Virus record (IMG/VR): IMGVR_UViG_3300005096_000055
Location: 1-58,902 of that record
Direction: 5' to 3' (one strand)
DNA: 58,902 nucleotides
DNA from: a virus
Lineage: Duplodnaviria > Caudoviricetes
The position numbers and the translations under genes are program-made. Shown here piece by piece: positions 871 to 20,136 of this stretch. Positions within the stretch are counted from its first letter, which is position 1; the number at the start of each line of letters is the position of its first letter. The notes beneath the pieces are model-generated. The model searched no databases and was not told where the DNA came from. It saw nothing but the letters and a program-made list of their open reading frames with translations.

Positions 871-943
871 GAAGGTGGTAGCGGCGGAAAGGGAGTTCCC
901 GGTAAGAGGTTCGGTCGGTTGCGGCACCGGACCCACGGCGCGA

Positions 944-989: not shown

Positions 990-1005
990 TATTGGGTGTT
1001 GCTGC

Positions 1006-2659: not shown

Positions 2660-2758
2660 TTGCTTACCCCTTTCGTTCTGGTAACGCTTGTCGCTACCCC
2701 ACAACAAACCTACCCGAATGGATAGGTTTGTTGGTGGCTAGGTACAAGCTCTCGCTCG

Positions 2759-3293: not shown

Positions 3294-3384
3294 TTGCTTA
3301 CCCCTTTCTGGTAGCTCGTTGCTACCCCACGACTCTCGAGGGGTTCTCGAGAGTCGGTGGCTAGTTACGAGCCTGTTTGGCTAG

Positions 3385-3678: not shown

Positions 3679-3925
3679 TGTCAAGCCAATCGAGCCAGCT
3701 CTGGAAGAACTTTTCGACTGCCTCGATTGCCATGTCCTCTCGCACCTTGTCGCGACCCCACGAGTACTCTCCCGTGTCTTCGCGGTCAGGTTGCCAGATG
3801 TTTTCGTCAGTCTCGACGAACATCCACGGCGCTTCTGAGAAGTCCACCTGTGGTTCATCGACGAGTTCTCCAGTTTCCGTGTCGATCGACACGGCTACCG
3901 GTAGGTACACGACTACTTTCGCCAT
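3671..3925 (-). CDS. Hypothetical acidic protein
   Basis: Conserved RBS before MAKVVV. Confidence 0.75.
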   Translation of the reverse strand: MAKVVVYLPVAVSIDTETGELVDEPQVDFSEAPWMFVETDENIWQPDREDTGEYSWGRDKVREDMAIEAVEKFFQSWLDWLDNA

Positions 3926-3990
3926 GTTGCTTACCCCTTTTCTAGTAGCTGTCGCTACTCCCCGAGGTTCTGTGGAACCCCGAGGGCTAG

Positions 3991-4191
3991 TTACAGCTCT
4001 GCGAGCAGCTCGTGATACATGTCGAGAGCACACGCTGCGCAAAGGCGCATGGTTCGAGCCGTGTAGCCTTCACCTGCTTTTGCAGTCAGCTTCATCCTTG
4101 CATAGCCTTTGGGACATCCATCGCAATGGTTGTCACCGGTAGGCCATACCCTGGGGACTCCATGAGAGTTGTAATCAACCTCAACGCTCAT
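3991..4191 (-). CDS. Small Zn-finger protein
   Basis: CDGC...CAAC. Confidence 0.65.
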   Translation of the reverse strand: MSVEVDYNSHGVPRVWPTGDNHCDGCPKGYARMKLTAKAGEGYTARTMRLCAACALDMYHELLAEL

Positions 4192-4787
4192 TCGCTGCTC
4201 CCCCTCTCATGTATCCACACAGCCGCCTGGAAGTCCCTAGGAGCCATTTCGAACAGCTCTGCAACCTCTCGGTAGCAACTTGCCACCATGGCGTACACAC
4301 CGACCCTCTGGAGGTCGTGAATATCCGCCCAGCGCTTCCCAGTAGCCGCCCGCAACGCCCAGCGGTCTATCACGACTGCATTGGGGTTGCCGGCGATCGC
4401 CCTGTAGAACTCTCGTATCTTGTGCGAGGGCCCGTCGGGCTCAGGAAAGGTGGAGATGATCGAGCCACCTGCAAGGATCCTCTTGACTCGTGCAACGGCA
4501 TGCGAGAACCCTCGAGGGTTTCCAGCAAGTGCCATTTCGGCCATTCGGATGTTGTTAGACCATGATTGGTTTGGACTCATTGCAGCAATCACGCCTGCGG
4601 CTTGATGCTTTGTGACTCCGTACTTTCGCGCCAACCTTCTTGCAAGGTTCTCGGCTCCGGTGTACCAACCCATCCCTGCAATCACCTCGTAGGTTGTCAA
4701 GGAGTTCCCGATATTGGTCAGGTTCTCAATGATCCTTGAGCGATGCTCGGGAAGGTTGTGGACACCTCTTGGTATCGTCGCCTTCAT
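4188..4787 (-). CDS. Phage protein with HhH-glycosylase-like motifs (DUF7178-like)
   Basis: GWY..AAGVIAAMSPNQSW..KIREFYRAI..VVIDRW..FQAAVW; family from recall. Confidence 0.55.
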   Translation of the reverse strand: MKATIPRGVHNLPEHRSRIIENLTNIGNSLTTYEVIAGMGWYTGAENLARRLARKYGVTKHQAAGVIAAMSPNQSWSNNIRMAEMALAGNPRGFSHAVARVKRILAGGSIISTFPEPDGPSHKIREFYRAIAGNPNAVVIDRWALRAATGKRWADIHDLQRVGVYAMVASCYREVAELFEMAPRDFQAAVWIHERGSSE

Positions 4788-4865
4788 TCTTACCCCTTTT
4801 CTGATGTCCTCGTAGACACCGCCCACCCTTGGAGCTTCCCCCAAGGGTGATCGCTGGTTACCAGC

Positions 4866-5459
4866 TCATACGTGGCAGTCGAGGCTAACCACGATTGCAT
4901 CAGGCCGAGCTACGCGAAGGTCATTCCATGCCTTCTCGTAACCCTCTGCTTTGTCCTCCTCGGTCTTGCCGTCCTCATCAGGAATTGAGGAACCGAACCA
5001 ACCCATGCGGGCTCGTTCGATCCATTCTCCGTCTGGGTTGACGAATGCAGTCATCGTGTAGTCGCTATGGACTTCTGATAACCGACAGCGGTTTCGCCCA
5101 AGTGACGTGTAGCGATCATCTGAAGGCCACACGGAACTCTCACCAGTCCCATCACAGCCATTGCAGCCGTTGCAACCGTCGTACCAGGCTTGCCCGAACT
5201 CCTCGAGTCCTCGTGGACGTTCGCCGGTACCGTTGCAAATGCGACAGAGCTCCTTGAGATCGAGCCAATCCAGCCCGCGGATACTGCCATCCCATCTGCC
5301 TCCAACAACCCACCAATCCCATCGCGAACCTTCGCTGAACGCTTCATCGTTCTCGTCGAAGGGCGCCATCAGTCTGGTGACCTCTTCCAGGACATCCTTC
5401 TTCTGTGAGAGATTGTCGAACCTCTCTGGTAGCACAACGGCTACCTTGAAGTGTGTCAT
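4866..5459 (-). CDS. Phage protein with DnaJ-type Zn-finger motifs
   Basis: RWDWWVVGGRW; CRICNGTG and CNGCDGTG. Confidence 0.7.
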   Translation of the reverse strand: MTHFKVAVVLPERFDNLSQKKDVLEEVTRLMAPFDENDEAFSEGSRWDWWVVGGRWDGSIRGLDWLDLKELCRICNGTGERPRGLEEFGQAWYDGCNGCNGCDGTGESSVWPSDDRYTSLGRNRCRLSEVHSDYTMTAFVNPDGEWIERARMGWFGSSIPDEDGKTEEDKAEGYEKAWNDLRVARPDAIVVSLDCHV

Positions 5460-5526
5460 GTCTCTTACCCCTTTCTCGTGTGGTCCATCCACACTCCGCG
5501 AAGTTCCTTGGAACTCCACGGGCTGT

Positions 5527-5709
5527 TTACGAACCTTTGCTCCTGCGTTCCTTGAGGATCTCCTTGGCTATCTCGAGCCTCTCTTCATCCTCTTTGGCGT
5601 TCAGCCACGGCAACGTCTCAAGCGCTTTCACCATGTTGGAAAGCTCCCAGCTCGGCCGGCGACTCCACATCTTCTTGTGATAGTCGCGCGACATTGACTG
5701 AGCTACCAT
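5527..5709 (-). CDS. Hypothetical protein
   Basis: Fills gap; stop overlaps repeat element. Confidence 0.6.
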   Translation of the reverse strand: MVAQSMSRDYHKKMWSRRPSWELSNMVKALETLPWLNAKEDEERLEIAKEILKERRSKGS

Positions 5710-6008
5710 GAGGTATCGGCCATCCGATACGACTGGTGTATGTCGTCGTAGAGCCGTCGTGCATCAGACCATGCATATTCACCGTAGAAGGTCTTGACCC
5801 TCTTTGCGGACTTCTGCGAGATCAGATGGGTTGCATAGACCCTGTGCATTCCATCGGTGTATTCGTAACCACCAACGGTGTCGCGCATGTCGGCCACTTC
5901 ATGTACGAGCTCGATTGCATGATCCTCTGTGTCGCCTCCGACCCAGAACACCATGCTCTTAACCACTCGCCATGAACCAACCTTCGCATATCTCTGCGAT
6001 GCTCTCAT
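5703..6008 (-). CDS. Hypothetical protein
   Basis: Conserved RBS. Confidence 0.75.
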   Translation of the reverse strand: MRASQRYAKVGSWRVVKSMVFWVGGDTEDHAIELVHEVADMRDTVGGYEYTDGMHRVYATHLISQKSAKRVKTFYGEYAWSDARRLYDDIHQSYRMADTSW

Positions 6009-6103
6009 GTTCTCTTACCCCTTTCTTGGTACCTTGTCAGTACCCCACCACCTTCGACCTGAGTGCGTCGAAAGTGGGTGGCTAGTGACAAGCTAGTTCG
6101 TGC

Positions 6104-6652
6104 CTAGTTCGTGATTGGGCGGTCCTTGATTTGATTCCGCGGATCATCGAGGCTCCTGAAGAACTCCTCGATGGGTTCTGCATAGGCGCTGTTGGTGATC
6201 GCCAGCTTCCTTTCGTACTCCACTTCGGCTTCATTGAGTTCCCGGAAGGCTCTTCCGGTTCCACCAGGATCGTACCTAGACGTGAACCTCCGCACCTTCG
6301 GGAGCCCCTGTACGTCCCTCTCGGTGCGATTGACAACGTAGAACCCGTTATCGCCTGGGTCGGTTCGCACCAACTGCAGCGATACCTCGAGGTTGTGTTT
6401 GTCCATCACGCCTAGTGGGACGTTCACGATTCCAACCGAGAGTGTTTCGAACCTCTCGCGGCCATCGAAGAACTCACAGACGATTTGCGCGAACCTCGAA
6501 GCTTCGTACTCCTGGTCGGCGCGAACCTTCCGCCTATCCAGCTCCTTCAGGAAGGCATAGACCGATTCCGGTCCCCCATTCCAGTGAAGGTATATGGCTG
6601 GTGAGAACCTCATCTCGCCATTTGTGAAGATCACGTTGGCTCGATTTCCCAT
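6104..6652 (-). CDS. Hypothetical phage protein
   Basis: MGNRANVIF..IYLHWNGGPES; conserved RBS. Confidence 0.8.
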   Translation of the reverse strand: MGNRANVIFTNGEMRFSPAIYLHWNGGPESVYAFLKELDRRKVRADQEYEASRFAQIVCEFFDGRERFETLSVGIVNVPLGVMDKHNLEVSLQLVRTDPGDNGFYVVNRTERDVQGLPKVRRFTSRYDPGGTGRAFRELNEAEVEYERKLAITNSAYAEPIEEFFRSLDDPRNQIKDRPITN

Positions 6653-6741
6653 TTGCTTACCCCTTTCCGTAGGTGTCCATCACCTACACGCCCTTGCAGG
6701 AACTACACAGCTCCTGCAAGGTCGTCTAGTTGTCGAACGGT

Positions 6742-7566
6742 TCAGAACAGCTTCATGTGAAGCCGGCCGAACTTGACGAGACCCTCGAGGGTTTCCACAA
6801 CACCTTTGACAGTGTTCGGGTTTTCAAAACCACCTTCGCTCTTGACGGTGATCACGGAACCTTCATCGTCCTCATCGGAACCATCGTAGATCCCAATCAT
6901 GGCTCCCTCAAAGTCTGTGAGCCACACGTATAGGTCCTCGTAGCCGTAGCCTTCCTGCCTGTTGAAGTGAACGGCTAGGGCTTGCAGCCCACCACCTAGC
7001 TCTTCAACGAAGGTCTTCGTGTTCACAGGTAGCTTCCCTCGAGCCCTCGACTCTTCAATGGCTTTCGCCAACTCGCCGAAGTGCTTTGAGCGATGGCTAC
7101 GCGCAAGTTCACGACCCTTTGCATCGCGTTCCTCCCTTGCAACTTTCTCCACTGCTAGATGGAGGTTGAAGGGATCCTCGCCAACTTCAAGGGCGATTCT
7201 CGCAGCCCATTCAGTGTCGTAGTAGAAACCCATTGAGGGTTCCGTAGACAGTCCTGAGTAGGCTGTGAAGTACTTCGTGTACGCCGCTTCGCCTCTCCAG
7301 AGCGCTGCGAGTTTTCGGTAGATATGGCTGTTGCCGGACACGCGTGTTTCGCTTGTCCTATGCATTGCCGCAATCTCACCTGTGGAAAGCGGAATTGCTT
7401 CGTCGAGGTTCACGAAAGCCATGTAGGAGCTCGGATGAGCCCTATCCTCGGCCTTCTTGGAAACCTCATGGATCACTTCCACGATTGCACGACCGTCTGC
7501 AGAGAAATAGAGGGTTTTGAACCCCAAATCAGTCTGCATGTCTTTGTGCATACCTCTCGCTTTCAT
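6742..7566 (-). CDS. Hypothetical protein
   Basis: 274 aa; conserved RBS. Confidence 0.8.
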   Translation of the reverse strand: MKARGMHKDMQTDLGFKTLYFSADGRAIVEVIHEVSKKAEDRAHPSSYMAFVNLDEAIPLSTGEIAAMHRTSETRVSGNSHIYRKLAALWRGEAAYTKYFTAYSGLSTEPSMGFYYDTEWAARIALEVGEDPFNLHLAVEKVAREERDAKGRELARSHRSKHFGELAKAIEESRARGKLPVNTKTFVEELGGGLQALAVHFNRQEGYGYEDLYVWLTDFEGAMIGIYDGSDEDDEGSVITVKSEGGFENPNTVKGVVETLEGLVKFGRLHMKLF

Positions 7567-7634
7567 CTCTTACCCCTTTCCGTAGCGGTTGTCGCTACTC
7601 CACAGGGACCTCGTTTGAAGTCCCTGCGGGCTAG

Positions 7635-7844
7635 TTACAACCTGTCTCGTTTGGCCTGGCGACGTAGCTCATCTAAGTCGTCAATCCAGATGCGCTTTCG
7701 GTAACCCGTCCTGTCCGTGTAGACCTTTACGTAAAGGTCGGGATCGATCAGGAGGTTCTCGTGGATGTGTGAGCGAACTTTCTCAATTTCTGATAGCAGC
7801 TCGCTCACAGTTCCCTCGGAGCTTTCGTAAACCACTTCGTACAT
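7635..7844 (-). CDS. Hypothetical protein
   Basis: 69 aa in operon. Confidence 0.65.
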   Translation of the reverse strand: MYEVVYESSEGTVSELLSEIEKVRSHIHENLLIDPDLYVKVYTDRTGYRKRIWIDDLDELRRQAKRDRL

Positions 7845-7847
7845 GGC

Positions 7848-8102
7848 TTACACCTTCTCCGCAAACATGTTCCCGGAAGCCAGTCGCGGCTTCACATAGT
7901 CCTCGAAGGTCCAGCCGGCATCGTCGTAACCCGCTATGGTCACCACGCTCTTGCCGTCACCTTCCGTGTAGCCTCCGGTGACTATTGCATTCCTTGGTAG
8001 GTATGCTGCAACCCTCTTCTTGGAGATGCCGTTGCCGCGAACCTGCGCTATCCAGCTCGAGTTTCGCGAAGACCCATGACCCTTTGTCTGTTGGTCATTC
8101 AT
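7848..8102 (-). CDS. Hypothetical protein
   Basis: Conserved RBS. Confidence 0.75.
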   Translation of the reverse strand: MNDQQTKGHGSSRNSSWIAQVRGNGISKKRVAAYLPRNAIVTGGYTEGDGKSVVTIAGYDDAGWTFEDYVKPRLASGNMFAEKV

Positions 8103-8201
8103 CTACTTACCCCTTTCTCATCTAGTGCAGTTTGCCTACACCCCACCGGACTCGAGCGCTTTCGCCCAAGTCCGAGTGGCTGTTTGCAACCTCTCAGTCG
8201 C

Positions 8202-8762
8202 TCAGTCGATCCGTGAATGCCCGTATACCTTCACCTTGGTTTCGCCCAGCTCCTCGAGCCCTTCGCGCAAGCTCTTGGCCATTGCATAGGCTGCAGCTTC
8301 CTTTCGCGCCATGCTTTGGGAGCTTCTACCAACCGGTAGGTTGATTCGCATCCCTCCACCGTAGGTAGATGATGCACCGAGGTTCTTCTTAGCCCAATGG
8401 GCGAAAGAAGAGTTCCCAGGTCGCGTAGTCAGCCATGCGAAGCCACAGACCCCCTCAGGCACGTTCCAGCTTTGCACAACCTCGCTCGAGTCATCGAACA
8501 GGGTTGCATGTTGCTGAACCACCATTGGGGTTGGTTTCGCATCCTCGAAGGCCTTGATGCCAACCTCGGTCGCTTTCGCCCAGAGTTTGGCATAGGCTTC
8601 GTAGCGCTTTGCGCGCTTTGCGGCTTGCTCGTCGCGGTTCGCAATGAACTTGTCGCGAGCTTCTGTGGCGTGTTGGACGCAGTATTTCGACTTCGATGCA
8701 GAGTACGATGACTTTGCAGCAGTCGTACATGCTTCCCACGCGCATTGTCCGTAGGTTTCCAT
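8202..8762 (-). CDS. Hypothetical phage protein with N-terminal Cys/His finger
   Basis: CAWEAC..YCVQH; GVCGFAW; conserved RBS. Confidence 0.8.
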   Translation of the reverse strand: METYGQCAWEACTTAAKSSYSASKSKYCVQHATEARDKFIANRDEQAAKRAKRYEAYAKLWAKATEVGIKAFEDAKPTPMVVQQHATLFDDSSEVVQSWNVPEGVCGFAWLTTRPGNSSFAHWAKKNLGASSTYGGGMRINLPVGRSSQSMARKEAAAYAMAKSLREGLEELGETKVKVYGHSRID

Positions 8763-8844
8763 CGTTCTTACCCCTTCTCGTAAAGTCGTTCGACCCTACG
8801 CGTAGGTTCCCCGATCTCTCGAGGAACCCTCGCCTAGTTTCGCA

Positions 8845-9123
8845 CTAGTGGTTTCGGCCTCCGCATATGCTGCATCCAGCCTCTTTGCGGTCCTTTGTGT
8901 CTAGGTGATCCTGTAGCTCGTCGATGAGGGTTTGCACATCCTCATCAGTCAAGAGCAGGCCTTTGTAGGAACTCGTGTCGACCAGTATCAGCCGCGTAAA
9001 CTCAGCGGCAGAGGTTTCCAAGACGTTCACCCACGCTGTGGGAGAGGTTTTGGATCCCTCTAGCTGGATCGTGGTGGTTCTCAAGTGGCCTTCGAAGCTC
9101 ACTTCTACCTTCGCCATTGTCAT
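8845..9123 (-). CDS. Hypothetical protein
   Basis: GAGAAGGGGT RBS; C-terminal CSICGGRNH. Confidence 0.7.
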   Translation of the reverse strand: MTMAKVEVSFEGHLRTTTIQLEGSKTSPTAWVNVLETSAAEFTRLILVDTSSYKGLLLTDEDVQTLIDELQDHLDTKDRKEAGCSICGGRNH

Positions 9124-9204
9124 ACCCCTTCTCGCAGTCTCGTTTGAGCCTACGCGCCCTTCCATGAATCCTTGTGGACCCATGGAAGGTCGTCTAGGTT
9201 CACC

Positions 9205-9543
9205 CTAGCGATAGTCGCTTTGGTCGGCGGTTCTTGTGATCTTGACGTCGCTTGCAGTAACTTCCACGCGACTTGTGCGGCTATCGCCACCAGTTGCCCA
9301 GAACCGTCTTTGCACGCTCCCGGTAACCCATATGGCTGCTCCGCGAAGCCCACCAGTTTGGATAACCTCAACGAGCTCGTCATCAGGATCCCACAACACT
9401 ACGGGGATCACATCGATCCTCCTACGCGGTTCGCTGGACCTTACGGTTACCAGCAACCTCACAAGTTGTGAGCCGGATTCGAAGAACTTCAGCTCCGGTT
9501 CCGCGGCTAGTTTCCCAGCCAGTACGGTTAGATTCAAGTCCAT
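9205..9543 (-). CDS. ssb: Single-stranded DNA-binding protein (short, no acidic tail)
   Basis: LNLTVLAGKLAAEPELKFFESG..IPVVLW..G..IWVTGSVQRRFW..SRVEVTA OB-fold pattern. Confidence 0.9.
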   Translation of the reverse strand: MDLNLTVLAGKLAAEPELKFFESGSQLVRLLVTVRSSEPRRRIDVIPVVLWDPDDELVEVIQTGGLRGAAIWVTGSVQRRFWATGGDSRTSRVEVTASDVKITRTADQSDYR

Positions 9544-9785
9544 TCGCTTACCCCTTCTCGCAAGTCACTTCGTACTCACGCGCCCTTGCACGAACCCTAT
9601 GAAGTTCGTGCAAGGTCGCCTGGGAACGAGACTAGATTCGTCAATCCCAAGTTATTCAGTTGTCAGCTTTCGCCACTATCGCTTTCGCATTTGCTTACCC
9701 CTTTCGTATCTCTTTAGAGCCTACGCGCCTCCCCACCAGGCCTACGCACCTTCGCGTAGCCCCGATGGGGAGTCGTCTAGGTTCG

Positions 9786-9902
9786 CTAGAATCCCATGTA
9801 GCTCTGTGCAACGTCCTCGACGTTTGACCAAAGCTCGATCATCCCGGCGCCTAGGGAGGACCCATAGACGCTGAGCACGAACCCCAGCAACGTACCAATC
9901 AC
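9786..9902 (-). CDS. Small hydrophobic peptide (38 aa)
   Basis: Read manually: MIGTLLGFVLSVYGSSLGAGMIELWSNVEDVAQSYMGF; GTGA overlap with upstream stop. Confidence 0.55.
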   Translation of the reverse strand: MIGTLLGFVLSVYGSSLGAGMIELWSNVEDVAQSYMGF

Positions 9903-10201
9903 GTTCGCACCAAGTACTCGTGCGCCGGCGAGACCTTTGCAAAGTACTCACCAACGTCTGTACCTATTGCAAGCTCGGCCTCGATGACCCCACCTACAAC
10001 AGAGTCGCTTGTGGGGTTGGCAAGGCCGTTTGCGCTCTGTAGGTACTTTCGCGCGACTCTCAGGTCCGTAAAGAACCTGCCATCTGCGCGCGTCCATATC
10101 GGCTGTTTGGAACCATCGGGTAGGTATTCCCAATCCTGTATCAGGATCACGAAGACGTTTCCTGCGAGTTGCCCCACAGCCCAGAGCCTTAGGGAAACCA
10201 T
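9899..10201 (-). CDS. Hypothetical protein
   Basis: TAATG coupling with upstream gene. Confidence 0.7.
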   Translation of the reverse strand: MVSLRLWAVGQLAGNVFVILIQDWEYLPDGSKQPIWTRADGRFFTDLRVARKYLQSANGLANPTSDSVVGGVIEAELAIGTDVGEYFAKVSPAHEYLVRT

Positions 10202-10449
10202 TACAGCCTCCCAGCAGCTTCATGGGTTTCAGCAGCCTTGGCGGCTTGCTCGAACATCATGGAGAGCTCAAGCAGCTTTTCACGGCTTGCCTGGAACTCC
10301 ACACGAGTGCTTCCACCCTTGGCGAATGCCTCCACGGTCACGGTAGCTTCAACGCTACCCCTGACGATCACGTAGGCTTCCACCAACGTCTCGCCATCCA
10401 TGAAGGTCAATTCAACCTCTGGTGGGTATGCCATGAATATCGGCATCAT
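10201..10449 (-). CDS. Hypothetical protein
   Basis: Conserved RBS. Confidence 0.75.
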   Translation of the reverse strand: MMPIFMAYPPEVELTFMDGETLVEAYVIVRGSVEATVTVEAFAKGGSTRVEFQASREKLLELSMMFEQAAKAAETHEAAGRL

Positions 10450-10563
10450 TCTCTTACCCCTTCCGGTTCTTGAGAACCTCTCAAGATCCCCGCAACCCTC
10501 GAGGATCTTTCCTCAAGGATTCTGGGGACCCCATGAACCCTCTCGAGTCCACGGGGAAGTTCC

Positions 10564-10689
10564 CTACAAGTTTGCCGCGACCTTCGCTAGTTCCCCTGAG
10601 GCCCATTGGGCCATTTGAAGAACTAGGAACGTACCTATGGCGATTGCCACTAGGTATTTCGCGATTGCTTCGAGCGCACATCGGCTCAT
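10564..10689 (-). CDS. Small membrane peptide (41 aa)
   Basis: Read manually: MSRCALEAIAKYLVAIAIGTFLVLQMAQWASGELAKVAANL after AAAGGGGTAAG. Confidence 0.7.
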   Translation of the reverse strand: MSRCALEAIAKYLVAIAIGTFLVLQMAQWASGELAKVAANL

Positions 10690-10802
10690 TGCTTACCCCT
10701 TTCGTTGGTCGATAGGTTGGTACCTACCCCTAGCCCTACCATGAATCGGTAGAGCTAGGGCTAGGTGCAAGAGCTCTTGTGTGAACCCTTGCACCCTATC
10801 GC

Positions 10803-11330
10803 TTACCCCTTAAAGGTGACAGTTGCCAATTCGTCACCGAGTCCTTGGCTTGAGAGGTTGGCGACCGTATCGGTAGCTATCACCTCTGCTGTCCATCCTT
10901 CATCGGTCGCGACATCGGAATTGGCCAACACACCAGCGAACGCAACAGCATTCGCGAATGAGTCGAACCCCTGCAACAAGGTCCCTCCATACTCGTGGTC
11001 GTTTGAGTCCACGTAGTAATTGACCATTTCCGCTTTCACATGGTACGCGAACCCACTACGGCCGTCAGTAATCCTGACGAACGCCGTAGCATTGTCGGTC
11101 GCATCCGTTGCGTTCGCCTTGGTTGCCGCTTCCCTCACGAGGTTGCGGTAGCCCTTGCGCCGTTTTTCGTTGGCCGCTGCTTTGTGGGCGCGACACAACG
11201 TAGCCTTCCCGACTACTTCGACGTTGCAAGACTCATCAGCGCACACACGAGTAGTTGAGGCTACGGTAGCCTTACTCGCTGCATCGCGTTCGGTCGCTGC
11301 ACTGTCAATCGCTTCTAGGTTGATAGGCAT
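10803..11330 (-). CDS. First early gene, hypothetical protein with Cys/His finger
   Basis: CADESC..LCRAH; conserved RBS. Confidence 0.75.
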   Translation of the reverse strand: MPINLEAIDSAATERDAASKATVASTTRVCADESCNVEVVGKATLCRAHKAAANEKRRKGYRNLVREAATKANATDATDNATAFVRITDGRSGFAYHVKAEMVNYYVDSNDHEYGGTLLQGFDSFANAVAFAGVLANSDVATDEGWTAEVIATDTVANLSSQGLGDELATVTFKG

Positions 11331-12017
11331 TACTTACCCCTTCCGGCACCTTGCCTCAAGCACTTCTCGAGGACTTACATGTACCCTTCGACCTACCAAC
11401 CTATGCCCTAGAAAGGGCTATCGGTCGATAGGTTCAAGGGTACCTATCGACACCGAACACGCTAGACGCGCTCAGTGCCGATAGGTACGGGGTAAGGGGT
11501 AGGTCACTATGTAGACTGACGATACCTACTTGCCATCATCCACATGGACTTACGGCGTCTAACCTCGTATCGTTGTAAATGCCCTAGCGCTATCCCGATT
11601 CAAGACTTGCACCTATCACAAGGTGCCTAGTGCCATAGCAGGGACTTACCCATCACTGTCGATAGTTCATCACGGCGGCATCACCCCTCTAACGATATCC
11701 ACCTAGGTCGATATCGGCAATTCCGTTCCCATCATGGCGTAGTTGACACTAGGCCATGGGGGTATCGGTATCGGGGTACTTGAGTCGAACACGCTAGGAC
11801 CGATAGTCAGTATCGGTAGGGCTCTCATCAGTCAGGTTGTCAAGGTGCAGTGCACCCCTCGAGCGTAGGTACTTGATACGACTCCTGCGATTCACGCAAG
11901 CCCACTGAAGGGCTAGGCCGTGAGTCATCCGATGAGCGATAGTGCCTAGGCTCTATCCATCGGTCGGCTTTCCGTATCGACTTAGGCTATCAAGGTGCCT
12001 GTACCGCTAGGCGGCAC
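11331..12017 (-). ncRNA. ~690-nt structured 5' leader of the early transcript
   Basis: No ORF >=60 aa; many hairpins; 9-bp complementarity between 11991-11999 and 11345-11353. Confidence 0.55.
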
Positions 12018-12023
12018 AAGGGC

Positions 12024-12053
12024 AGTATGGCACAGATCTAGCGATATGGTCAA
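12024..12053 (-). promoter_or_regulatory. Sigma70-type early promoter
   Basis: TTGACC-18 nt-CATACT with extended -10 TG. Confidence 0.7.
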
Positions 12054-12624
12054 TACCCATAGTCAAGAATTCCCTACAACCCTTGCTATGACTGACTTAC
12101 CAACCAACTGCAATCACCCTAGAGCGCCACAATGGCCCTAAATCGGGGGGTTCAGCGTATGTGCCTAGTGGTTGGCTACAACCTCGCCACGAAGCGCTTA
12201 AATCGCCGTGTATGGCGTGTGTGCCAGGTGCTATCAACTAGGGGTAAGCGAGGTTAGTTACCTTTCATCACTATAACTGGGCTCTATTTGGGCTACTTGA
12301 CCTTAACTGCTGTTATTGGAAGGACCTGGTAAATACCGAACATATGTTCGACTCACCCTTACCCCTACCACCATAGGGGGAACTATTCCTTAGTCCCTTA
12401 CTCAACTACTAATCAATAGATCCATAGTTGAGTAGTGAGCAACTAAGGAATTGACTTAACACTATGGCGATAGGGGTAACCCCCGTTACCAGTTTGTATA
12501 GTGATGTGTGAAGCCCCGCTCACAAATTTGACCCCCAATTTTAACCCCCTTGATATCCGTCCATCCAGCCCCACGAATCAGGCAAATGTATATATCCGTC
12601 CATCCGTTACCTCGAAACTGGGGG

Positions 12625-12652
12625 TTGTCACCAATCACCAGGCCCATACAAT
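12625..12652 (+). promoter_or_regulatory. Sigma70-type promoter for 12687 gene and tRNA cluster
   Basis: TTGTCA-16 nt-TACAAT. Confidence 0.6.
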
Positions 12653-12686
12653 GGTGAAGGGAAACCGCATCTACCAAGGAGGATGA

Positions 12687-13067
12687 ATGGACCGACCGAA
12701 CAGACTATCCGAGATCACCGTTGGGGTGGGTGACTTGATCGATACCGTTGTCAAGAATCGCGCCAAGCACCTACAGGACTACAGCGTTGCTCTGGAGAGA
12801 TTCCATGAAGCTGCCAAGGACGCGCTCTATGGGCGCATCACCCAGGTAGTGAATGGGACCATCAAGGACCTCAGGTTCGACCTACCAGTGCCCGAGAACC
12901 ATGTCGACGACTACGACCGCGCGATCAAGATGCTCCAGATGACTCGCGACGCCGGCCAGGACACAGTGGTGCTGAGCGAAAGCGAGCAGGAGTCCTATGT
13001 GATGGACAATTGGGGCTGGAAGCGCAAGTTCACCGAGACCTCGACGTTCTATGTGGGCAAGGGGTAG
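12687..13067 (+). CDS. Hypothetical phage protein
   Basis: 126 aa, AAGGAGG RBS. Confidence 0.8.
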   Translation: MDRPNRLSEITVGVGDLIDTVVKNRAKHLQDYSVALERFHEAAKDALYGRITQVVNGTIKDLRFDLPVPENHVDDYDRAIKMLQMTRDAGQDTVVLSESEQESYVMDNWGWKRKFTETSTFYVGKG

Positions 13068-13243
13068 CGAGAATTGGGGGTTGTGGGGCTCGTAATGGGT
13101 TGATACGATCATGATCCCAGTGGCGGCAGTTAAGCTGGTCGCCAGTGGGACACCCCACTCGGGGTTGGGAATGGGCGCAGTGGCAAGGCGTGCTAGCGAA
13201 CCCTGTCAACACAGTCCGCTCCCTTCGCTCGAGTGGGGTATAC

Positions 13244-13312
13244 GCCGGGGAGGCCATGGGGCCAAGCAGCTTCCAAACCTGTATGGGTGGGGTTCGATTC
13301 CTCGCTCCGGCG
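13244..13312 (+). tRNA. tRNA-Trp(CCA), atypical (Gly-TCC reading possible)
   Basis: 7-bp acceptor gccgggg/ctccggc, GGTTCGATTCC T arm, loop TTCCAAA, G73; C:C mismatch in anticodon stem, short D arm. Confidence 0.6.
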
Positions 13313-13394
13313 CGACCCATCCCCATGGAGGGTGGAGAGGCATCGTGGATTCCGACGGCCGGTCCACACGTACAGATGCACTAGGCGGTCATAA

Positions 13395-13467
13395 CAGTGT
13401 GTAGCTCAGTTGGGAGAGCGCTCGGTTTGGAGCCGAGGGGTCGTAGGTTCAAGTCCTACCACACTGA
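13395..13467 (+). tRNA. tRNA-Pro(TGG)
   Basis: Canonical cloverleaf; ctcgg-TTTGGAG-ccgag. Confidence 0.92.
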
Positions 13468-13564
13468 CGGGGCCTGCCGAGGGAAAATAACTCGGGTGGC
13501 GAGGCGAAAGCGCGTAAGTAACTGAGCTAACAGCGGCGGAAGGATCCGCCAGGTCCCAGATTTT

Positions 13565-13636
13565 GAAGCCATAGCTGAGGGGCATAGCAGCGGACTTTTA
13601 ATCCGCAGTACGTAGGTTCGACTCCTACTGGCTTCA
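13565..13636 (+). tRNA. tRNA-Lys(TTT)
   Basis: Cloverleaf; gcgga-CTTTTAA-tccgc. Confidence 0.92.
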
Positions 13637-13710
13637 CGGTAGGGGGTGCGCGCCGTTTAAGCTGGCGGGTTCATAACCGTTGTCGGAAGGCGGCCCCCGT
13701 ACCAACGCCC

Positions 13711-13782
13711 ACCAGGCTCTTCTAACTGGCAAGATGCTAGGTCCTGACCCTGGCGATCGAGGTTCGAGTCCTTGGCCCGGTG
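13711..13782 (+). tRNA. tRNA-Gln(CTG), C at position 33
   Basis: ctagg-TCCTGAC-cctgg, GGTTCGAGTCC T arm, one acceptor mismatch. Confidence 0.75.
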
Positions 13783-13787
13783 CTCAT

Positions 13788-13861
13788 TCCGGGGTCGGCT
13801 AATGGCAAGCCGCGGGTCCTTGGAGCCCGCTATCAAGGTTCGAACCCTTGCCCCGGAGCCA
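13788..13861 (+). tRNA. tRNA-Gln(TTG), C at position 33, encoded CCA
   Basis: tccgggg/ccccgga acceptor, cgggt-CCTTGGA-gcccg, 3' GCCA. Confidence 0.85.
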
Positions 13862-13881
13862 ACTACGAAGGAATAGCACAC

Positions 13882-14193
13882 ATGACATTCAACTACCTCA
13901 TCGTTGATGGCTATGAACGCGTTGCAAGCCACACGGAACATGAGTGGGGGAGATACAACAGCCACGTCATCCAGACGAACAGTGAGTCAGCATTCAAGGG
14001 CATCTGCTGCATCGACAGGAAGGCAGATGTGGTCGCGACGGTGTGTGATGCAGCACTTACCGGGGTGTCATGGAGCATGCTGAGGGATTATTGGCTACCA
14101 GTGAAGCGCATCGAGGTCGTGTTCGCCAACTGTGGATGCCTACTGGATGCTGCTGAGGCCTTCGCTGATCTCGATGGTGACTGTGGCAGGTAA
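13882..14193 (+). CDS. Hypothetical protein
   Basis: GAAGGA RBS before MTFNYL. Confidence 0.55.
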   Translation: MTFNYLIVDGYERVASHTEHEWGRYNSHVIQTNSESAFKGICCIDRKADVVATVCDAALTGVSWSMLRDYWLPVKRIEVVFANCGCLLDAAEAFADLDGDCGR

Positions 14194-14421
14194 GCCACCG
14201 ACGAGGTAGCGGCTGTTGTTGAGATCAGTGCAGTAGACGGTGAGTGATGAAGTATCCTGGTGGAGATCGATCGTGGCAACACGATCTACGTCAGTGTGGC
14301 GGTTGATGAGCTCGAGGAGCTTGGTGCGGTTCTCGTCGGTGAGGAACCTCATGTGGGAGTGAGAGATGAGGCCCTTGTTCAGCCGGCCGTTTTCATCCTC
14401 GAGGGGTCGATCGCTTGTCAA
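14140..14421 (-). CDS. Hypothetical protein
   Basis: Last of a chain of coupled ORFs. Confidence 0.55.
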   Translation of the reverse strand: MTSDRPLEDENGRLNKGLISHSHMRFLTDENRTKLLELINRHTDVDRVATIDLHQDTSSLTVYCTDLNNSRYLVGGLPATVTIEISEGLSSIQ

Positions 14422-14672
14422 GTCACTGCCTTCTCTGCTCGCTGTGCAAAGTACCTTAGCGCCGATTTGAACTGGTTGGTAGTGATGTCGGGTGGGAGTA
14501 GCTTTTGGGCGGCTTCGACGATGCGATCGTAGTCGTATTGGCCGACTTCATCAAAGCTCTCCCATCCCTGGGTCTCAGTCCAGTCCTCGAATGCCGACCA
14601 CAGCAGTTGGGTTGCCATGGTGTTGAGGTTCCTTTCGAGTTCACGTTCTTCCATCATCATCTCTTCACCCAA
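14418..14672 (-). CDS. Hypothetical protein
   Basis: Acidic 84-aa coupled ORF. Confidence 0.65.
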   Translation of the reverse strand: MGEEMMMEERELERNLNTMATQLLWSAFEDWTETQGWESFDEVGQYDYDRIVEAAQKLLPPDITTNQFKSALRYFAQRAEKAVT

Positions 14673-14950
14673 TTCCCTTGATCATCGACAGCCGCTTGAC
14701 ATGCCTCACCGAACTCTTCGCCCAGGATCGCAAGCCACTCGAAGGCTGTGTGATGCTGGGATCCCCACTTGTGCTCTTGTGAGAGCCGTTCCATCTGGAC
14801 CAGGGTCATGGCAGTGCGGTGAGCGTTGGTTTGCTCACCAATGCCGTTGTAGAGTAAGGTTGAGCCTTGCTCGAGGTCGGTGAGTATGGCAATCGCAACT
14901 GCGGCTACCTGGACGAGCTCGTCTTTGAAGTCCTGGTTCGCTTCACTCAT
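14657..14950 (-). CDS. MazG-like NTP pyrophosphohydrolase, apparently circularly permuted
   Basis: ELVQVAAVAIA precedes ER.SQEHKWG.Q.H..WLAILGEEFGE. Confidence 0.7.
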   Translation of the reverse strand: MSEANQDFKDELVQVAAVAIAILTDLEQGSTLLYNGIGEQTNAHRTAMTLVQMERLSQEHKWGSQHHTAFEWLAILGEEFGEACQAAVDDQGNWVKR

Positions 14951-17766
14951 GCTCGCACCTCACTGCCTTCTAGCTTCACTGCTGGCATCACTTCTCGGGT
15001 CTCAATCCACACAGCCCGGATGAAGCCATGGGGGTTGAGCCTGAGTGCCCATGATTTGGCAGCCTTCTCGGCTGTAGTGATGTCCTTTTTCCCGTACCTC
15101 GTGACCTTGCCCTTGTAGTTCTCGATGCACAGGGTTACTTCCAGCTTCATCTTGCTCATGGCCGGCCTTTCCATACGCACACATAGCAGTACTCAGTGTG
15201 CGGGACATTTCCCCGTCGCTTGATGCCCCTGGTGCACTTGAATCGATACAGCGGCTCACTACCCAGCACTGCTACGAGCATGTGGTCTATGTCTCCACTA
15301 AGCCGCTTCTGGATCTCCCTCTGTATCGATCCAACGCTCACCTGCCGCCTTCGTGCATTGCTCACCACACTTGCCAGGCTCGGCTCGAGCCAGCTCGAGA
15401 TCATCATGACGTACTTCTCTGCTGCTTCCCTGTTGATCATTCCCCCATTGCCTTTCTGTAGGGCCTCGAGAACACTGCACCGCCGTACTGGTCGAGGAAC
15501 GTGACCTCGGCTGACTTGGCTGCAAGCTCAGCAGCCTCAGCTACCTTGAGCGGCACCCTCTTGATTCCTGTGTGCTCCGGGTACTCGAGGTACCACTTGC
15601 CGGCCCTGTCATACCTGACGACCTCGGCCTCAGCGATCAGCGTCACTGCATGGACGACTCTCTCGAGGCTTGGATCGCTCATTTGACTATCCATCCGAAC
15701 TCTCCTTGTCTACTCTTGCCTTCAAGCTCCCTATGGCGCCGGCAAGCGCAAAGAGGCGCCCTGTTCTCACATCCACCCCTCGAGGCGCACCCCCAATGGG
15801 GAACTCCGTAGTAGCCATTGCACACAGGGCAGAAGTGCATGGTGGATACATGAGATGGAAAGCTTGTGTTCTGGTAGACATGGACAGGTTCGTTCCTACT
15901 CATTTGACACTCCATTCTGGCAACATCTGAACCACCCTCATTGAGCTGCAATTGTGGTCGATATGGCGCTCACCGTCATCACACTCAACGTAAATGGCCC
16001 TGTCATTGAATGCAAGGTTGAGGATGTAGTCGAGTGCTGCTTCGTTGAGGGGTTGGTTGTTCTCGATGTGGTCATACATCACATCGAGAAGCCCGTCGCG
16101 CATATCGTCGTAGTTGATGGTCACTTTGATGCCTCAAGCTCTTCGATGGTGGCTACGAGCTCAATGCAGCGCCTCTCGGCATCATCACACCAGCGCTTCC
16201 AATCATCACGCTCCATTGCAAGACGCTTGATCTTATTCGGCCACCACGCCAAGCGGATACGCTGCTTCAGGAAGAACCAGTTGTCGCGTAGGCGCACTGA
16301 TAGGCGGTTGCGCTTTGGTGGTGGTCCCGGGTTACAGGTTGCTGTTTCGTCTTGGTCACTCATCTTCGCTCTCCAATCTGAGACGTTTCACTTTGCGTTT
16401 GCTCAACCGATCCCAATGCTGCCACTCAGCAGATGAACATCTCCACCACCGTCCACAAGAACACTGACGGACCTCTCCAAGCCAGCCGCGATTTCTCCAA
16501 TCGCCCATGAACTCCCCAAGCGTGCCAGCCTCCCTGCATTCCGAGGCGCGGTGTGGGGTGATGATCCTGTCACTCACGATGGTTCCTTTGGTTTGCCATC
16601 ACACCAACAAGGATCTCCTGTAGCTGTTGTAACGATCCACGGAATCCCTTTCCACGAATTCGTTCCGCCGATGATGTGTCCAGAGACATTCCCGTGAACA
16701 CATTGCTCGACTGGAGCGAACAACCCTTCGACTTGCTGCTCAAAGCGTTCACGGTCCCGTTCTGGTCCAACATATTCGTACAGGGTCATACTGCCTCCTC
16801 GTCAAATGGCATGAGTGCCATCTTCACGAATGAACATGGGCCGATTTGGATGAACGCTGTGCAGCGGTCACTGTTGCCGTAGACCAAGTTGCCTCCATGC
16901 GACTTGCACACTGTCATGAACCCGTATGGATCAACTTCGACAGCAACAAGGTCGGCCTCACAACAGCCGTTGGCTGATGGAATGATGAGGCATGATTTCG
17001 ATTCAGTTTTACTGAGCAGTTCGAGTTGGTACAGGGTCATGTTCGCCTCCCACACTTCCGGTGCCGCCACCGTCCAACTGTCAACCGGTGCCAACGCTGC
17101 CACCGCGTTTCATCCTCCCGGGCGATCATGTGGAAACAGCCGCCTGTACGTTTGATGCTCGTGAACCGTTCGGTGCTCACGAGTCACCCCCGTCATCGCC
17201 GTTCACCAGTGCTTCCAGCAATTCGCGTCTCGTCGTCCGATTCAGCACCTCGACGCCATCGAGCATCAATAACCAGATATTCACAGAATCCCACCGATCC
17301 CGCACGACGATGTAGTCGGTGCCGACGACCTCATACACCCCTTCTCCCGCGTTCCTCAATTTCGGGATTCGCGCCTGGGTCACGAGTCACCGCCATTCAA
17401 TGCGACTAACATGCCTTCATAGTTTTGTCCATGGCGACTATATGCGAGTAGGCTTCCACGCACGCCACGATCCCTGCCGCTTCCACAGGTGTTTCCCTTG
17501 ACTGCACATGATCTCCCTCCACTTCCCCTTGAACCACTCAACGACCCATGCAACCATCGTCATTTGGAGTACACCTCGAGCTCGTCGAACTGACTCTCGT
17601 TCCACACGATCATCGCCCTCACCGGCCGGCAAGCTGATGGACGGTGGTACGACTTGTTCAGGAGCTCCACGTACTCACAGTTCGAGTCATCCTCGATCGA
17701 TACCATGATGGAGCGGTGGACCTTGCAGTAGTTCAGGCTTGTGTTCGTGAGTCCCTGGAGCCTCAT
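14947..17766 (-). CDS. Chain of small coupled hypothetical ORFs (14947-15180, 15156-15440, 15437-15694, 15679-15951, 15900-16124, 16121-16363, 16356-16577, 16574-16789, 16786-17040, 17037-17180, 17177-17383, 17560-17766)
   Basis: Same strand, ATGA/GTGA overlaps, several Cys-rich; individual starts uncertain. Confidence 0.55.
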
Positions 17767-18146
17767 GTGCTCACCCTGGCAGCTGCATCAAGCTCGACAA
17801 GCCTCAACCACGAACTCGTGATTGGCTCTGAGCCAGCCGTAGCTCCCCACTCAGCTAGCCACACACCAACGTTCTGATGCATCGTGTACTGCCCACCCTT
17901 ATAGCCCTCCATGACCGTATCGAGCGCACCCTCGAGGACCTTGACCATGGCACCAATAGATGCGGTGGCCGGCTGCACTGCCAACTCCTCGTAGTAACCG
18001 CGGTACGTGTACGCATCGTTGAACCCGTACTTGGTAACAGCATCCTGAGGGAGTCCCTTGAGTGCTTCGATCAGCTTCCCAAGACACATTGCCTCATACA
18101 TGCTCGTATCCCACTGGTTCGCTTCGTTACTCATGATTCGCTCCAT
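17763..18146 (-). CDS. Hypothetical phage protein
   Basis: LGKLIEAL..GF..TYRGYYEELA..GYKGGQY. Confidence 0.7.
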   Translation of the reverse strand: MERIMSNEANQWDTSMYEAMCLGKLIEALKGLPQDAVTKYGFNDAYTYRGYYEELAVQPATASIGAMVKVLEGALDTVMEGYKGGQYTMHQNVGVWLAEWGATAGSEPITSSWLRLVELDAAARVST

Positions 18147-18474
18147 TCGTATTCGTCAGGTACTCGACCAACTCGCTGTTGTCCTGCAACAGCGCAATCA
18201 GCCTTGGTGTCAAGCAACCAACAAGGTCTTCTTCGGTCAGCTCGAGATCACGGATCCCGGCATCCTGCCAGATGCAGTGCATGGCCTCATGGAGCAACGT
18301 GTCGCGGATCACCGGTTCAGCGACTTCATCATCGATGGTGATGGTGAGTGTCGAGTGGTTGGTGTGGCCGAACAGCGACCTTGCTGCTTTGGCGGACTCA
18401 ACCATCGATTCTTTTCGGCTGTAGACAACGGCATATGCCGTTGCCCCAACCGAGATCTCACTAGGCCTCTGCAT
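18127..18474 (-). CDS. Zincin-like metallopeptidase-domain protein
   Basis: DTLLHEAMHCI (HEXXH) with downstream EE. Confidence 0.7.
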   Translation of the reverse strand: MQRPSEISVGATAYAVVYSRKESMVESAKAARSLFGHTNHSTLTITIDDEVAEPVIRDTLLHEAMHCIWQDAGIRDLELTEEDLVGCLTPRLIALLQDNSELVEYLTNTNGANHE

Positions 18475-18615
18475 GGAATCTTCCCTTCTTCACAAGCGCC
18501 CAGGCGCCTTTCTTATGGCCGACCGGATTCCATGCAGCACCACACTCACCACAGATCCAATCGAAGTCCTTGAGGCCCAACCTCCAGCCTCTCACAAGGA
18601 AATGGCGATGGTCGC

Positions 18616-20136
18616 TCATGGCCATTGCCCTGTCGCTGTGAAGCTGAGGTCCCGGATCCTTGGGTCGAAGATCGTGACAACGCAGCCATCGGTTGGTGGA
18701 AGCAGCTCCATCCTCACGATTCTCAGCATCCTGAGTGCCTCCTCATTGTCGGGGCGTTTGCCAAAAGTGGCCTCGAGGCGCTTGAGCGCTTCATCAAGGC
18801 CATTGCGGAACCACTCAAAGGCTTCAACGGACGGTATGTTCTTGAGATCGATGTCGCTCATGGCCTTGGGCCTACCCACTGCGTTGGATCATTCCTGTTG
18901 CTGATGGCACGCCGAGTGTCTCCACGGACTGCATCGCGCATCTTGCCAAGGTCCCATGCCAGCCGGCGAATGAATGTAGCAAGGTCGCGAGAAGTGGCCA
19001 CGGACTCGAGGTCTGTTCCGTCCGCTTCACACATATCGGCATCGTGCTCAAGCAGCATGGCAACGTGATCGAGCTTGAAGATCCTTCCTCTTCCAGGAAC
19101 GAGGTTCTTGACTCGGTTGGTCTGTTGCTCGAGCCGGTTGACCTTCCGTGTCAGGTACCTCACTCGCCGCCTAAGTTCATCGATCTCCTCGTCACAGTTG
19201 ATCACTTCCACTTTGGTCGCTTCATCCATGTCCTTGCTCACTTTCTCGTATCCCATACTGCGTACACGCTGACCAAACAGCCGCGCTCCTTGTCTTGATA
19301 CACACCGGTCACGAGCGAGTCGCACTCACTCTCACCGATGATCGCCTGTATGCCATCCTGTATATGCGCATCGAACCGGCTCAGTGACTTCGTGATGTTC
19401 TCGAACCAGTACCTGCTCTTGCCGAACTCATCCCATGGCATCTCGATGACACGATCGACCTTCCTGCCGGTCCTGAGCTCATTGATGCCGATATCGGTGA
19501 TGATCATCGCTCGCGTCTTCTTGATCACCATCACTTCACCACAGCAATCGTCAATGCCACAATCCCAACCACTGACACCGCATAGATCACAGCCACGATC
19601 AGCTTGTGCTTCATTGGTTCACTCAGCATGGAAATGGCTCGGCTGTGGGTTGGTTGGCTTCTCGGTTGGGTTGTCCCATGCCCACCCACAGACGATGCAG
19701 CGGTAGCGAGCTGGGATCCATTGATCGTCGGTGATCCATGTGGCTTGTGAGTCGCGCACAGCGTCATGGCCACCCTTGCAGGGATCATCGAGTGCTTTGG
19801 GCAGCTTGATTGGCTTGGTATTCGTCATAGCTCTGGATCCGCTGCTACGTCCTCGAGCTCAGCCGGAAGTGCACCATCTTCCCAGGTTGTTCCCCATACG
19901 GTCGTCCATCTTGTGACTGTTCGCGACTGGACTGTCATAGGTAAGCAGTTTCTCCGTGTATATGCGTTGCGTGCCTTGTCCCATTGCGCTGCTGCTCTTG
20001 TTGCAACATCGAAGTTCACCTTCGGGTAGATGTGCCTTGGGCCAGAGTGGTTGCCGGCACAGATGATGCGATACTCGTCTTCTTTGCCAACAGTTGTGTT
20101 GGCACTGGAGACGATAACCCTTTCGCTTTCAGCCAT
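18616..20136 (-). CDS. Small hypothetical ORFs (18616-18879, 18858-~19256, 19238-19534, 19619-19828, 19825-20136)
   Basis: Coupled chain directly downstream of rtcB. Confidence 0.55.

Follow-up and report, generated by a model that had tools for sequence, protein, structure and literature searches.

The early-operon gap and its flanking genes

The window analyzed here is the whole of a tailed-phage record, 58,902 bp in length (Duplodnaviria; Caudoviricetes; IMG/VR record IMGVR_UViG_3300005096_000055), which is rated 100% complete and has a direct repeat of 91 bp at its ends. Its gene content is of the siphovirus type (terminase, portal, major head protein, tape measure, helicase, exonucleases, RtcB ligase, and four tRNAs), and its nearest cultured phages are distant, with a portal only 25% identical to actinophage portals. 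The element in question, at positions 11331 to 12017, lies immediately upstream of the first gene of the early operon, and an earlier reading made from the letters alone (here, the sequence-only reading) had described it as a ~690-nt structured leader RNA. It is present as a single copy in the record, inside a 1,356-bp noncoding gap (11331 to 12686) flanked by divergent genes, and a blastn search of 11000 to 12700 against GenBank phages returned no match. We report that the gene-proximal part of this region has a strand-specific predicted fold that closes the ribosome site of the first early gene, making it a candidate for an RNA-based translational lock.

On the minus strand, the gap is followed by the first early gene (10803 to 11330; 175 aa), which heads a long block of small genes. 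In its product, a basic stretch comes after a Cys/His cluster. No family match was found for this protein, its AlphaFold2 model was poor (predicted local distance difference test score, 46), and the ESM Atlas returned sub-threshold matches only. On the plus strand, the gap is followed by a gene for a 126-aa protein (12687 to 13067), which has the ribosome site AAGGAGG and is itself followed by the tRNA genes, Pro-TGG, Lys-TTT, Gln-CTG, and Gln-TTG, clustered at 13395 to 13861 on the plus strand. The codon-usage log-odds were positive for both flanking genes and below zero in all six frames from 11331 to ~12600. No open reading frame (ORF) longer than 44 aa lies wholly within 11331 to 12017, and two plus-strand ORFs extend into the region from outside (109 aa, 11155 to 11484; 48 aa, 11995 to 12141). 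The description of the region as free of ORFs is thus upheld by both measures.

A predicted fold at the first early ribosome site

The whole 687 nt folded to −295.1 kcal/mol on the minus strand, with a z score of −8.1 relative to 20 shuffled sequences; the plus strand gave a z score of −7.0. Most of this excess comes from the last 190 nt. The stretch from 11331 to 11520 folded to −102.5 kcal/mol (z, −9.4) on the minus strand and to −74.4 kcal/mol (z, −4.6) on the plus strand, compared with a minus-strand z score of −2.9 for the first 510 nt, and the difference between strands was also evident in the sliding 200-nt window 11300 to 11499 (z, −11.0 for the minus strand versus −5.0 for the plus strand). 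In the full-length fold, 156 base pairs reached a probability of at least 0.8 on the minus strand, with nested long-range helices among them, versus 84 on the plus strand. Seven of the 35 base pairs at this probability in the hairpins of the 3' domain are G-U pairs, which correspond to C-A mismatches on the plus strand.

The 3' domain is predicted to be a four-way junction, an arrangement common to the minimum free energy and centroid structures. Its closing helix joins the anti-Shine-Dalgarno word UACCCCUU-A-CC (11491 to 11501, minus strand), which was recovered in both structures and as an inverted repeat, to the Shine-Dalgarno (SD) sequence GGAAGGGGUA (11344 to 11335) of the first early gene. 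This SD is part of a ribosome binding cassette, recognized as a motif, that consists of GGAAGGGGTAAGTA and the ATG of the first early gene (11328 to 11344, minus strand; ATG at 11330). Three minus-strand hairpins emerge from the junction. Hairpin 1 (11440 to 11488) is an uninterrupted 23-bp RNA helix capped by a CUA loop (−38.5 kcal/mol; z, −9.5), with five G-U pairs within its 19-bp core; a 14-bp stem picked out by the sequence-only reading proved to be the core of this longer helix. Hairpin 2 (11381 to 11443) is made up of three segments of 8, 11, and 5 bp (−40.2 kcal/mol; z, −7.5), and none of 200 shuffled sequences folded as well. Hairpin 3 (11354 to 11372; CCUCGAG / AAGUG / CUUGAGG) is smaller, at −8.6 kcal/mol, and is the counterpart of the small hairpins that precede other early genes. 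In the predicted fold, hairpins 1 and 2 each provide a double-stranded helix of ~20 bp or more, the length that marks an RNase III-type substrate.

To place the accessibility of this SD on a scale, it and the other early ribosome sites were each folded together with the preceding 200 nt. The probability of being unpaired was 0.0001 for the GGGG of the first-gene SD and 0.14 to 0.71 for the 15 other early sites. When these 200 nt were dinucleotide shuffled, only 1 of 300 trials gave a value as low for the first-gene SD. With 60 nt of upstream context, the same SD was open (unpaired probability, 0.74). The predicted closure thus requires the word ~150 nt upstream and would be lost if transcription started near the gene. 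The SD is predicted to be paired in a stable fold, as in SD-sequestering leaders, and the strand specificity that goes with such a leader was found for 11331 to 11520 only and not for 11521 to 12030. A minus-strand-specific fold that engages the SD implies that at least 11331 to 11507 behaves as minus-strand RNA.

Ribosome-site cassettes of the early operon

The ribosome site of the first early gene belongs to a repeated cassette. The genome has 18 copies of the word AGGGGTAAG, versus 0.18 expected; 16 of them are on the minus strand, from 2663 to 11341, in the extended form (G/A)AAGGGGTAAG. An ATG follows within 2 to 5 nt at 15 of the 16 minus-strand copies; the copy at 10810 has only a more distant GTG. 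A hairpin of −7 kcal/mol or lower was present in the 28 nt just upstream of 14 of the 16 cassettes, compared with 21% of 3,000 control windows (P value, 8e-8). The stems are 6 to 9 bp long and differ in sequence among sites. Their stability is greater on the minus strand (−8.70 kcal/mol) than on the plus strand (−6.15 kcal/mol; Wilcoxon P value, 0.003), and 14 of their 115 pairs are G-U pairs. These hairpins were assessed by folding each site together with controls; a MAFFT/RNAalifold consensus of the 16 sites did not align them. The invariant pairing of hairpin and AGGGGTAAG provides 16 built-in controls for the comparison described above and suggests operon-wide control of early translation. 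The cassette may serve as a handle for such control or for recombination between cassettes.

Not every cassette heads a gene of ordinary size, as a perfect copy at 9702 to 9675 (minus strand) is followed by an ORF of only four codons (ATG at 9689). A scan of IMG/VR for the cassette word gave 27 single matches, which is the chance level. The related word GGGGTAAG was found 2 to 5 nt before an ATG or GTG in two unrelated phage contigs of 45 to 49% GC (L039, three sites; L042, two sites), on one strand in each; the word is therefore not unique to the present phage, and it may represent a host-lineage type of strong ribosome site. Stem-loop cassettes before small early genes are known from T4-type phages, in which PeSL units, each consisting of a strong sigma-70 promoter and a terminator stem-loop, precede small nonessential early ORFans (PMC2839356). 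The present cassettes resemble these PeSL units in that a short conserved stem-loop cassette is repeated before many small early genes. They differ from PeSL units in consisting of a hairpin and a ribosome site, with no promoter-like match at any of the 16 sites and no U-tracts after the stem-loops.

Small hydrophobic ORFs of 38 and 41 aa are present on the minus strand in the apparent gaps of the early operon at 9786 to 9902 and 10564 to 10689, and 200-nt windows over these gaps show strong structure (z, −6 to −8). The gene for an RtcB-type RNA ligase (20138 to 21778, minus strand) has a ribosome site, GATGGGTAAGTAATG, that is similar to the early cassette.

The 5' hairpin and the middle of the leader

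At the other end of the leader, a hairpin of the form UGUGCCGC / CUA / GCGGUACA (12000 to 12018, minus strand) begins at the predicted first transcribed base. It folds to −12.0 kcal/mol (z, −4.3), a stability that none of 200 shuffled sequences equaled, and in the full-length ensemble seven of its base pairs, including one G-U pair, have a probability of at least 0.8. This hairpin had been noted in the sequence-only reading and is present where stated, as is every other sequence feature listed there, although the features differ in statistical weight.

The 479 nt between 11521 and 11999 are rich in repeated words and in many short hairpins and palindromes on the minus strand. The repeated words include GCACCTTG (three copies), TCAAGTACC (two), GTAAGTCC (three), CTAGCGTGTTCG (two), CGATA/TATCG, and CTAG. 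CTAG occurs 14 times in the gap, versus 1.8 expected from the rest of the genome, and is enriched in the middle of the leader, as are TAAGTC (6 versus 0.08 expected) and CTATCG (6 versus 0.22); CUAG lies within or beside the loops of several leader hairpins. Across the leader, 10 direct 9-mers were counted versus 1.08 expected, along with 4 long-range inverted 9-mers (P value, 0.022) and 15 long-range inverted 8-mers (2.95 expected; none of 500 shuffles reached 15). This part of the leader also contains two stretches that had been proposed as tandem modules. Identical 9-mers do mark their ends, with GCACCTTG at 11998 and 11848 (and again at 11626) and TCAAGTACC at 11876 and 11783, but neither stretch folded better than shuffled sequence: for module 1 (11998 to 11868), 9 of 200 shuffles were as good (z, −1.6), and for module 2 (11848 to 11775), 45 of 200 (z, −0.65). 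No repeat unit was found by Tandem Repeats Finder, and an alignment of the contexts of GTAAGTCC showed no real homology.

The two ends of the leader are linked by a further complementarity, also noted earlier. The word CAAGGTGCC (11345 to 11353, minus strand), beside the first ribosome site, is complementary to GGCACCTTG at 11999 to 11991 and again at 11627 to 11619, and the helix between 11999 to 11992 and 11352 to 11345 had a probability of at least 0.8 in the full-length fold, although a single 9-mer pair of this kind is near the chance level (0.73 expected). As a whole, the first 510 nt (11521 to 12030) folded to −189.3 kcal/mol (z, −2.9) on the minus strand and slightly better, to −195.8 kcal/mol (z, −4.7), on the plus strand. 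The idea of one structured leader RNA of ~690 nt therefore survives in part: the region is noncoding and has a 5' hairpin and a strand-specific 3' domain, while the ~500 nt upstream of that domain are weakly structured and not strand specific.

Promoter-like sites

A sigma-70-type promoter-like site lies on the minus strand at 12053 to 12024, recognized by its match to the consensus. It consists of TTGACC (12053 to 12048), an 18-nt spacer with a TGn element in which TG lies one base upstream of the −10 element, and CATACT (12029 to 12024), and it predicts a start at ~12017. The location and the TG are as described in the sequence-only reading, but the term "near-consensus" overstated the site, which matches at 9 of 12 consensus positions. 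It was the sole minus-strand match in a promoter scan of 10500 to 14000, which returned two sites versus 2.0 expected by chance. The other, a plus-strand site with 10 of 12 matches in the consensus scan (12625 to 12652), precedes the 126-aa gene. Over 1 to 20000, promoter-like sites are scarcer than chance (4 versus 10.4 expected), and two of the four fall in the 1.36-kb gap, one for each of the divergent genes. Tandem promoters were considered at three GCACC-TTGAYA words and rejected, as no −10 element was seen by eye at a spacing of 16 to 19 nt.

The upstream part of the gap

Upstream of the proposed promoter, a minus-strand hairpin of ~120 nt at 12359 to 12479 (z, −6.4) pairs a geneless copy of AGGGGTAAG (word at 12366) with a copy of its complement. 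The complement of the cassette word, UUACCCC, occurs three times in the gap, versus 0.04 expected: one copy is in the 3' domain, one is in the 12359 to 12479 hairpin, and the third, at 12248 to 12240, has no local partner. On the plus strand, 12240 to 12248 reads AGGGGTAAGCGA with no ORF after it, and its minus-strand complement has 12 nt of complementarity to each of the early-gene sites at 9555 and 10810. The possibility that the 12359 to 12479 hairpin and the 3' domain are homologous closed domains was rejected, as their alignment showed no real homology, and a third closed domain at 12262 to 12080 was likewise rejected (z, +1.1).

A close relative of the phage is present in DNA sequencing run X1 as short contigs, none of which spans 10670 to 12172, so that it is uninformative for the leader. 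For the 12359 to 12479 hairpin, this relative differs at nine places, seven of which are listed. The pair was kept on the minus strand at five of five single changes at paired positions and on the plus strand at one of five; of the other two listed changes, one disrupts a pair and the other falls outside the paired positions. These changes are weak evidence, because an A-to-G change opposite U always keeps the pair.

Several features of the DNA itself were also observed in this part of the gap. Two tandem repeats of ~64 nt (CAC..GGCACA.ACGC...CGATTTA.G...TGTGGCG; 40 identical of 71 alignment columns) occupy 12106 to 12236, 50 to 180 bp upstream of the minus-strand promoter-like site, and show no fold above chance (z, +1.1). 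The word ATATCCGTCCATCC is present as two direct 14-nt copies (12553 to 12566 and 12592 to 12605), 39 bp apart and just upstream of the plus-strand promoter-like site; judged by their arrangement, these copies look like operators. The AT-richest part of the gap is 12300 to 12600 (43 to 44% GC).

Known RNA families and relatives of the flanking proteins

A comparison with Rfam, proposed in the sequence-only reading as one way of checking it, identified only the tRNAs at the gathering threshold and, even at E values of ≤5, no match to the leader. At that relaxed threshold, the search of 11000 to 12800 gave only two matches to microRNA precursors at 12361 to 12480, which are spurious (19 to 21 bits versus cutoffs of 102 to 140). 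No intrinsic-terminator-like site, such as an attenuator would have, was found on the minus strand in 10500 to 14000. Over 1 to 20000 there was one weak minus-strand match, and the total on both strands was seven, versus a shuffled mean of 15.5.

Relatives of the 126-aa protein were 86%, 72%, 68%, and 43% identical, on contigs of 1,304, 13,095, 58,259, and 3,774 nt, respectively. The 175-aa protein had a single relative in the protein collection, 76% identical and encoded on the same 13,095-nt contig as the 72% identical relative of the 126-aa protein. None of the contigs carrying the 68 to 86% identical relatives is present in the searchable viral, metagenome, and genome contig collections. 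Those relatives for which DNA loci were available, in metagenome and viral collections, were only 29 to 39% identical, and their gene contexts differ. A portal relative at 91% identity is on an 8.5-kb fragment without the leader region.

A proposed translational lock in a long early leader

Collectively, these findings lead us to read 11331 to 12017, tentatively and with somewhat less than an even chance of being right, as a long 5' leader of the early operon with translational control that is probably dependent on processing. The observations underlying this reading are the sequence features, the noncoding character of the region, the strand-specific predicted structure at its 3' end, and the predicted sequestration of the SD relative to the internal controls. 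Within the leader, the gene-proximal 190 nt are, on the modeled fold, a strong candidate for an RNA translational lock.

From this we infer transcription, its start site, processing by RNase III, and a regulatory outcome, as follows. Transcription would most likely start at ~12017 from the sigma-70-type site at 12053 to 12024, and the small terminal hairpin would protect the 5' end of the RNA, by analogy with other bacterial mRNAs. The ~480 nt between this hairpin and the 3' domain would be a spacer rich in repeated words and small hairpins. The last ~170 nt would form the four-way junction, in which the word at 11501 to 11491 pairs with the SD at 11344 to 11335, and the first cistron, alone of the 16 early cistrons, would be made with its ribosome site locked. 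Being first, this cistron would lack upstream ribosome traffic to open its start. Opening of the lock would then be required for translation, most likely through cleavage of the long hairpins by a host RNase III-type enzyme or, alternatively, through a bound factor.

Processing of leader hairpins has precedents. In phage lambda, translation of N is affected by a hairpin of its leader that lies after nutL and is sensitive to RNase III, and the early region of T7 has promoters, a leader of several hundred nucleotides, and RNase III sites before gene 0.3 and between early genes. In both the lambda N leader and the T7 site before gene 0.3, processing of a leader hairpin shapes expression of the first early gene. 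The present leader is like that of lambda N in the large hairpin structure beside the ribosome site of the first gene, which limits translation until it is processed in lambda and is predicted to do so here. It is approximately three times longer, has no boxA-like word and no terminators, belongs to an unrelated phage, and is a putative processing substrate. The likeness to T7 lies in a long untranslated head followed by many small early genes with preceding hairpins. Unlike in T7, the cassette hairpins, at 6 to 9 bp, are too short for classical RNase III sites, leaving only the leader hairpins long enough, and no tandem promoters were seen in the leader, either in the scan or by eye.

Several points weigh against this reading. 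The transcript is deduced from sequence, as none of the listed sequencing runs is recorded as RNA. The leader folds were predicted from a single sequence, and minimum-energy models are unreliable for RNAs as long as this one. Folding the parts separately gave about the same energy as folding the whole (−102.5 plus −189.3 versus −295.1 kcal/mol; the stretches differ by 13 nt), so the long-range pairings add little. The upstream ~510 nt have modest excess structure and no strand specificity and, by these fold predictions, could act as DNA. G-rich SD sequences pair readily, and 15% of the shuffles of the upstream sequence gave an SD unpaired probability of ≤0.01. The promoter call is weak, being a 9-of-12 match in a stretch where such sites are at chance number. 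Finally, the changes in the X1 relative weakly hint, at the sequence level, that minus-strand RNA may begin upstream of 12480, and hence before the start proposed here.

If the 3' domain works as predicted, one cistron of an otherwise uniform polycistronic early operon is set apart by an RNA lock, one that may be opened by processing, in a phage lineage without cultured relatives. As long as neither a host nor a transcriptome is at hand, the practical value of this is modest.

Alternative explanations

The region could instead be mostly a DNA-level control region, in which the upstream ~500 nt and the remainder of the gap hold palindromes and repeats that bind proteins, such as operators, activator sites, or an origin, with the mRNA starting closer to the gene, at or below ~11520 or near 11400. 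The 5' 510 nt, whose plus-strand fold is no worse than that of the minus strand, would fit such a region, as would the many near-perfect Watson-Crick palindromes, two of them centered on CCTAGG (11957 to 11938 and 11716 to 11693), and the concentration of CTATCG, 8 of whose 32 genomic copies fall in 11418 to 12473. The ~64-nt tandem repeats, the 14-nt direct repeats, and the AT-rich stretch elsewhere in the gap point the same way. The palindromes, however, share no common half-site or spacing, no promoter-like site nearer the gene passed the scan, and there is no cluster of DnaA boxes (134 matches genome-wide versus 124 expected, with four scattered in the region). The 3' domain is clearly strand specific and engages the SD. 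We consider a mostly DNA-level role unlikely.

Less probable still is that the stretch from the promoter to the first gene encodes a free-standing large noncoding RNA or a set of small ones. The z score of about −3 over 500 nt would not be unusual for a real structured RNA, and the 690 nt without coding potential, the nested long-range helices that give the minus strand its excess of high-probability pairs, and the excess of inverted words would all be expected of such an RNA. Among large and ornate phage-associated RNAs, GOLLD and ROOL are the closest comparison: like them, the present region is several hundred nucleotides long, ORF-free, phage-borne, and close to tRNA genes; the distance to the tRNA cluster is 1.4 kb, and the genome also encodes an RtcB ligase. 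Unlike them, it matched no Rfam family at E values of ≤5 and is fused to the ribosome site of a gene. There is no terminator-like site before the first gene, so that the 3' end of the RNA would be the gene's own ribosome site; in addition, the 5' 510 nt lack strand specificity.

We assign an equally low probability to the region being evolutionary debris, in which local duplications and decayed early-gene cassettes have accumulated and selection acts only on the hairpins near the ribosome site. The nearly 10-fold excess of direct 9-mers would be explained in this way, and the three GTAAGTCC words resemble a decayed form of the ribosome-site word GGGGTAAG. Cassettes do lose their genes, as seen in the cassette with the four-codon ORF at 9702 to 9675 and the geneless word at 12366. 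On the other hand, phage genomes rarely retain 0.7 to 1.4 kb of useless DNA, the repeated words form no alignable repeat unit, and a functional role is favored by the long-range helices, which are well defined, and by the 5' hairpin, which lies where the transcript is predicted to begin.

A wider proposal, which we regard as improbable, is that the whole 1.36-kb gap is an RNA control hub built on a single word pair, the AGGGGUAAG of the 16 early cistrons and the UUACCCC copies of the gap. If this were true, a transcript carrying the free copy at 12248 to 12240, or a protein or nuclease reading the word, could switch off translation of the whole early block at once, and the leader would represent a novel type of large regulatory RNA in phages and not a passive 5' untranslated region.

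The sequence-only reading had also suggested an antitermination leader of the put or nut type, through which polymerase would ignore terminators in the early operon. The put RNA of phage HK022, which follows an early promoter, has two long stems within ~70 nt and allows terminators as much as 10 kb distant to be overridden (PMC9378689). The present region shares with put, and with nut sites, a position just downstream of a candidate early promoter and, with put, a presumed action as RNA through stem-loops (PMC9378689); repeated CUAG in or at several hairpin loops could be protein-binding sites, and the first gene product has the Cys/His cluster and basic stretch noted above. Yet at ~690 nt the region is far longer than put, and its first 250 nt amount to an 8-bp hairpin and the insignificant modules. 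The terminators that put overrides have no predicted counterpart in the leader, and the minus strand has a single candidate over 1 to 20000. A boxA-like word (consensus GCTCTTTA) was not found with up to one mismatch in 11331 to 12060, a test of nut that covered boxA. With no Rfam match either, antitermination is very unlikely.

Another promoter-like site in the window

The best sigma-70-type match over 1 to 20000 lies well outside the early region, at 519 to 546 on the minus strand (TTGACA-16-TAGAAT; 11 of 12 positions), and points to the left end of the window. If the end repeat reflects a circular or concatemeric genome, this site would, judging from its position and orientation, read over the junction toward the minus-strand block of replication genes at 49017 to 58276.

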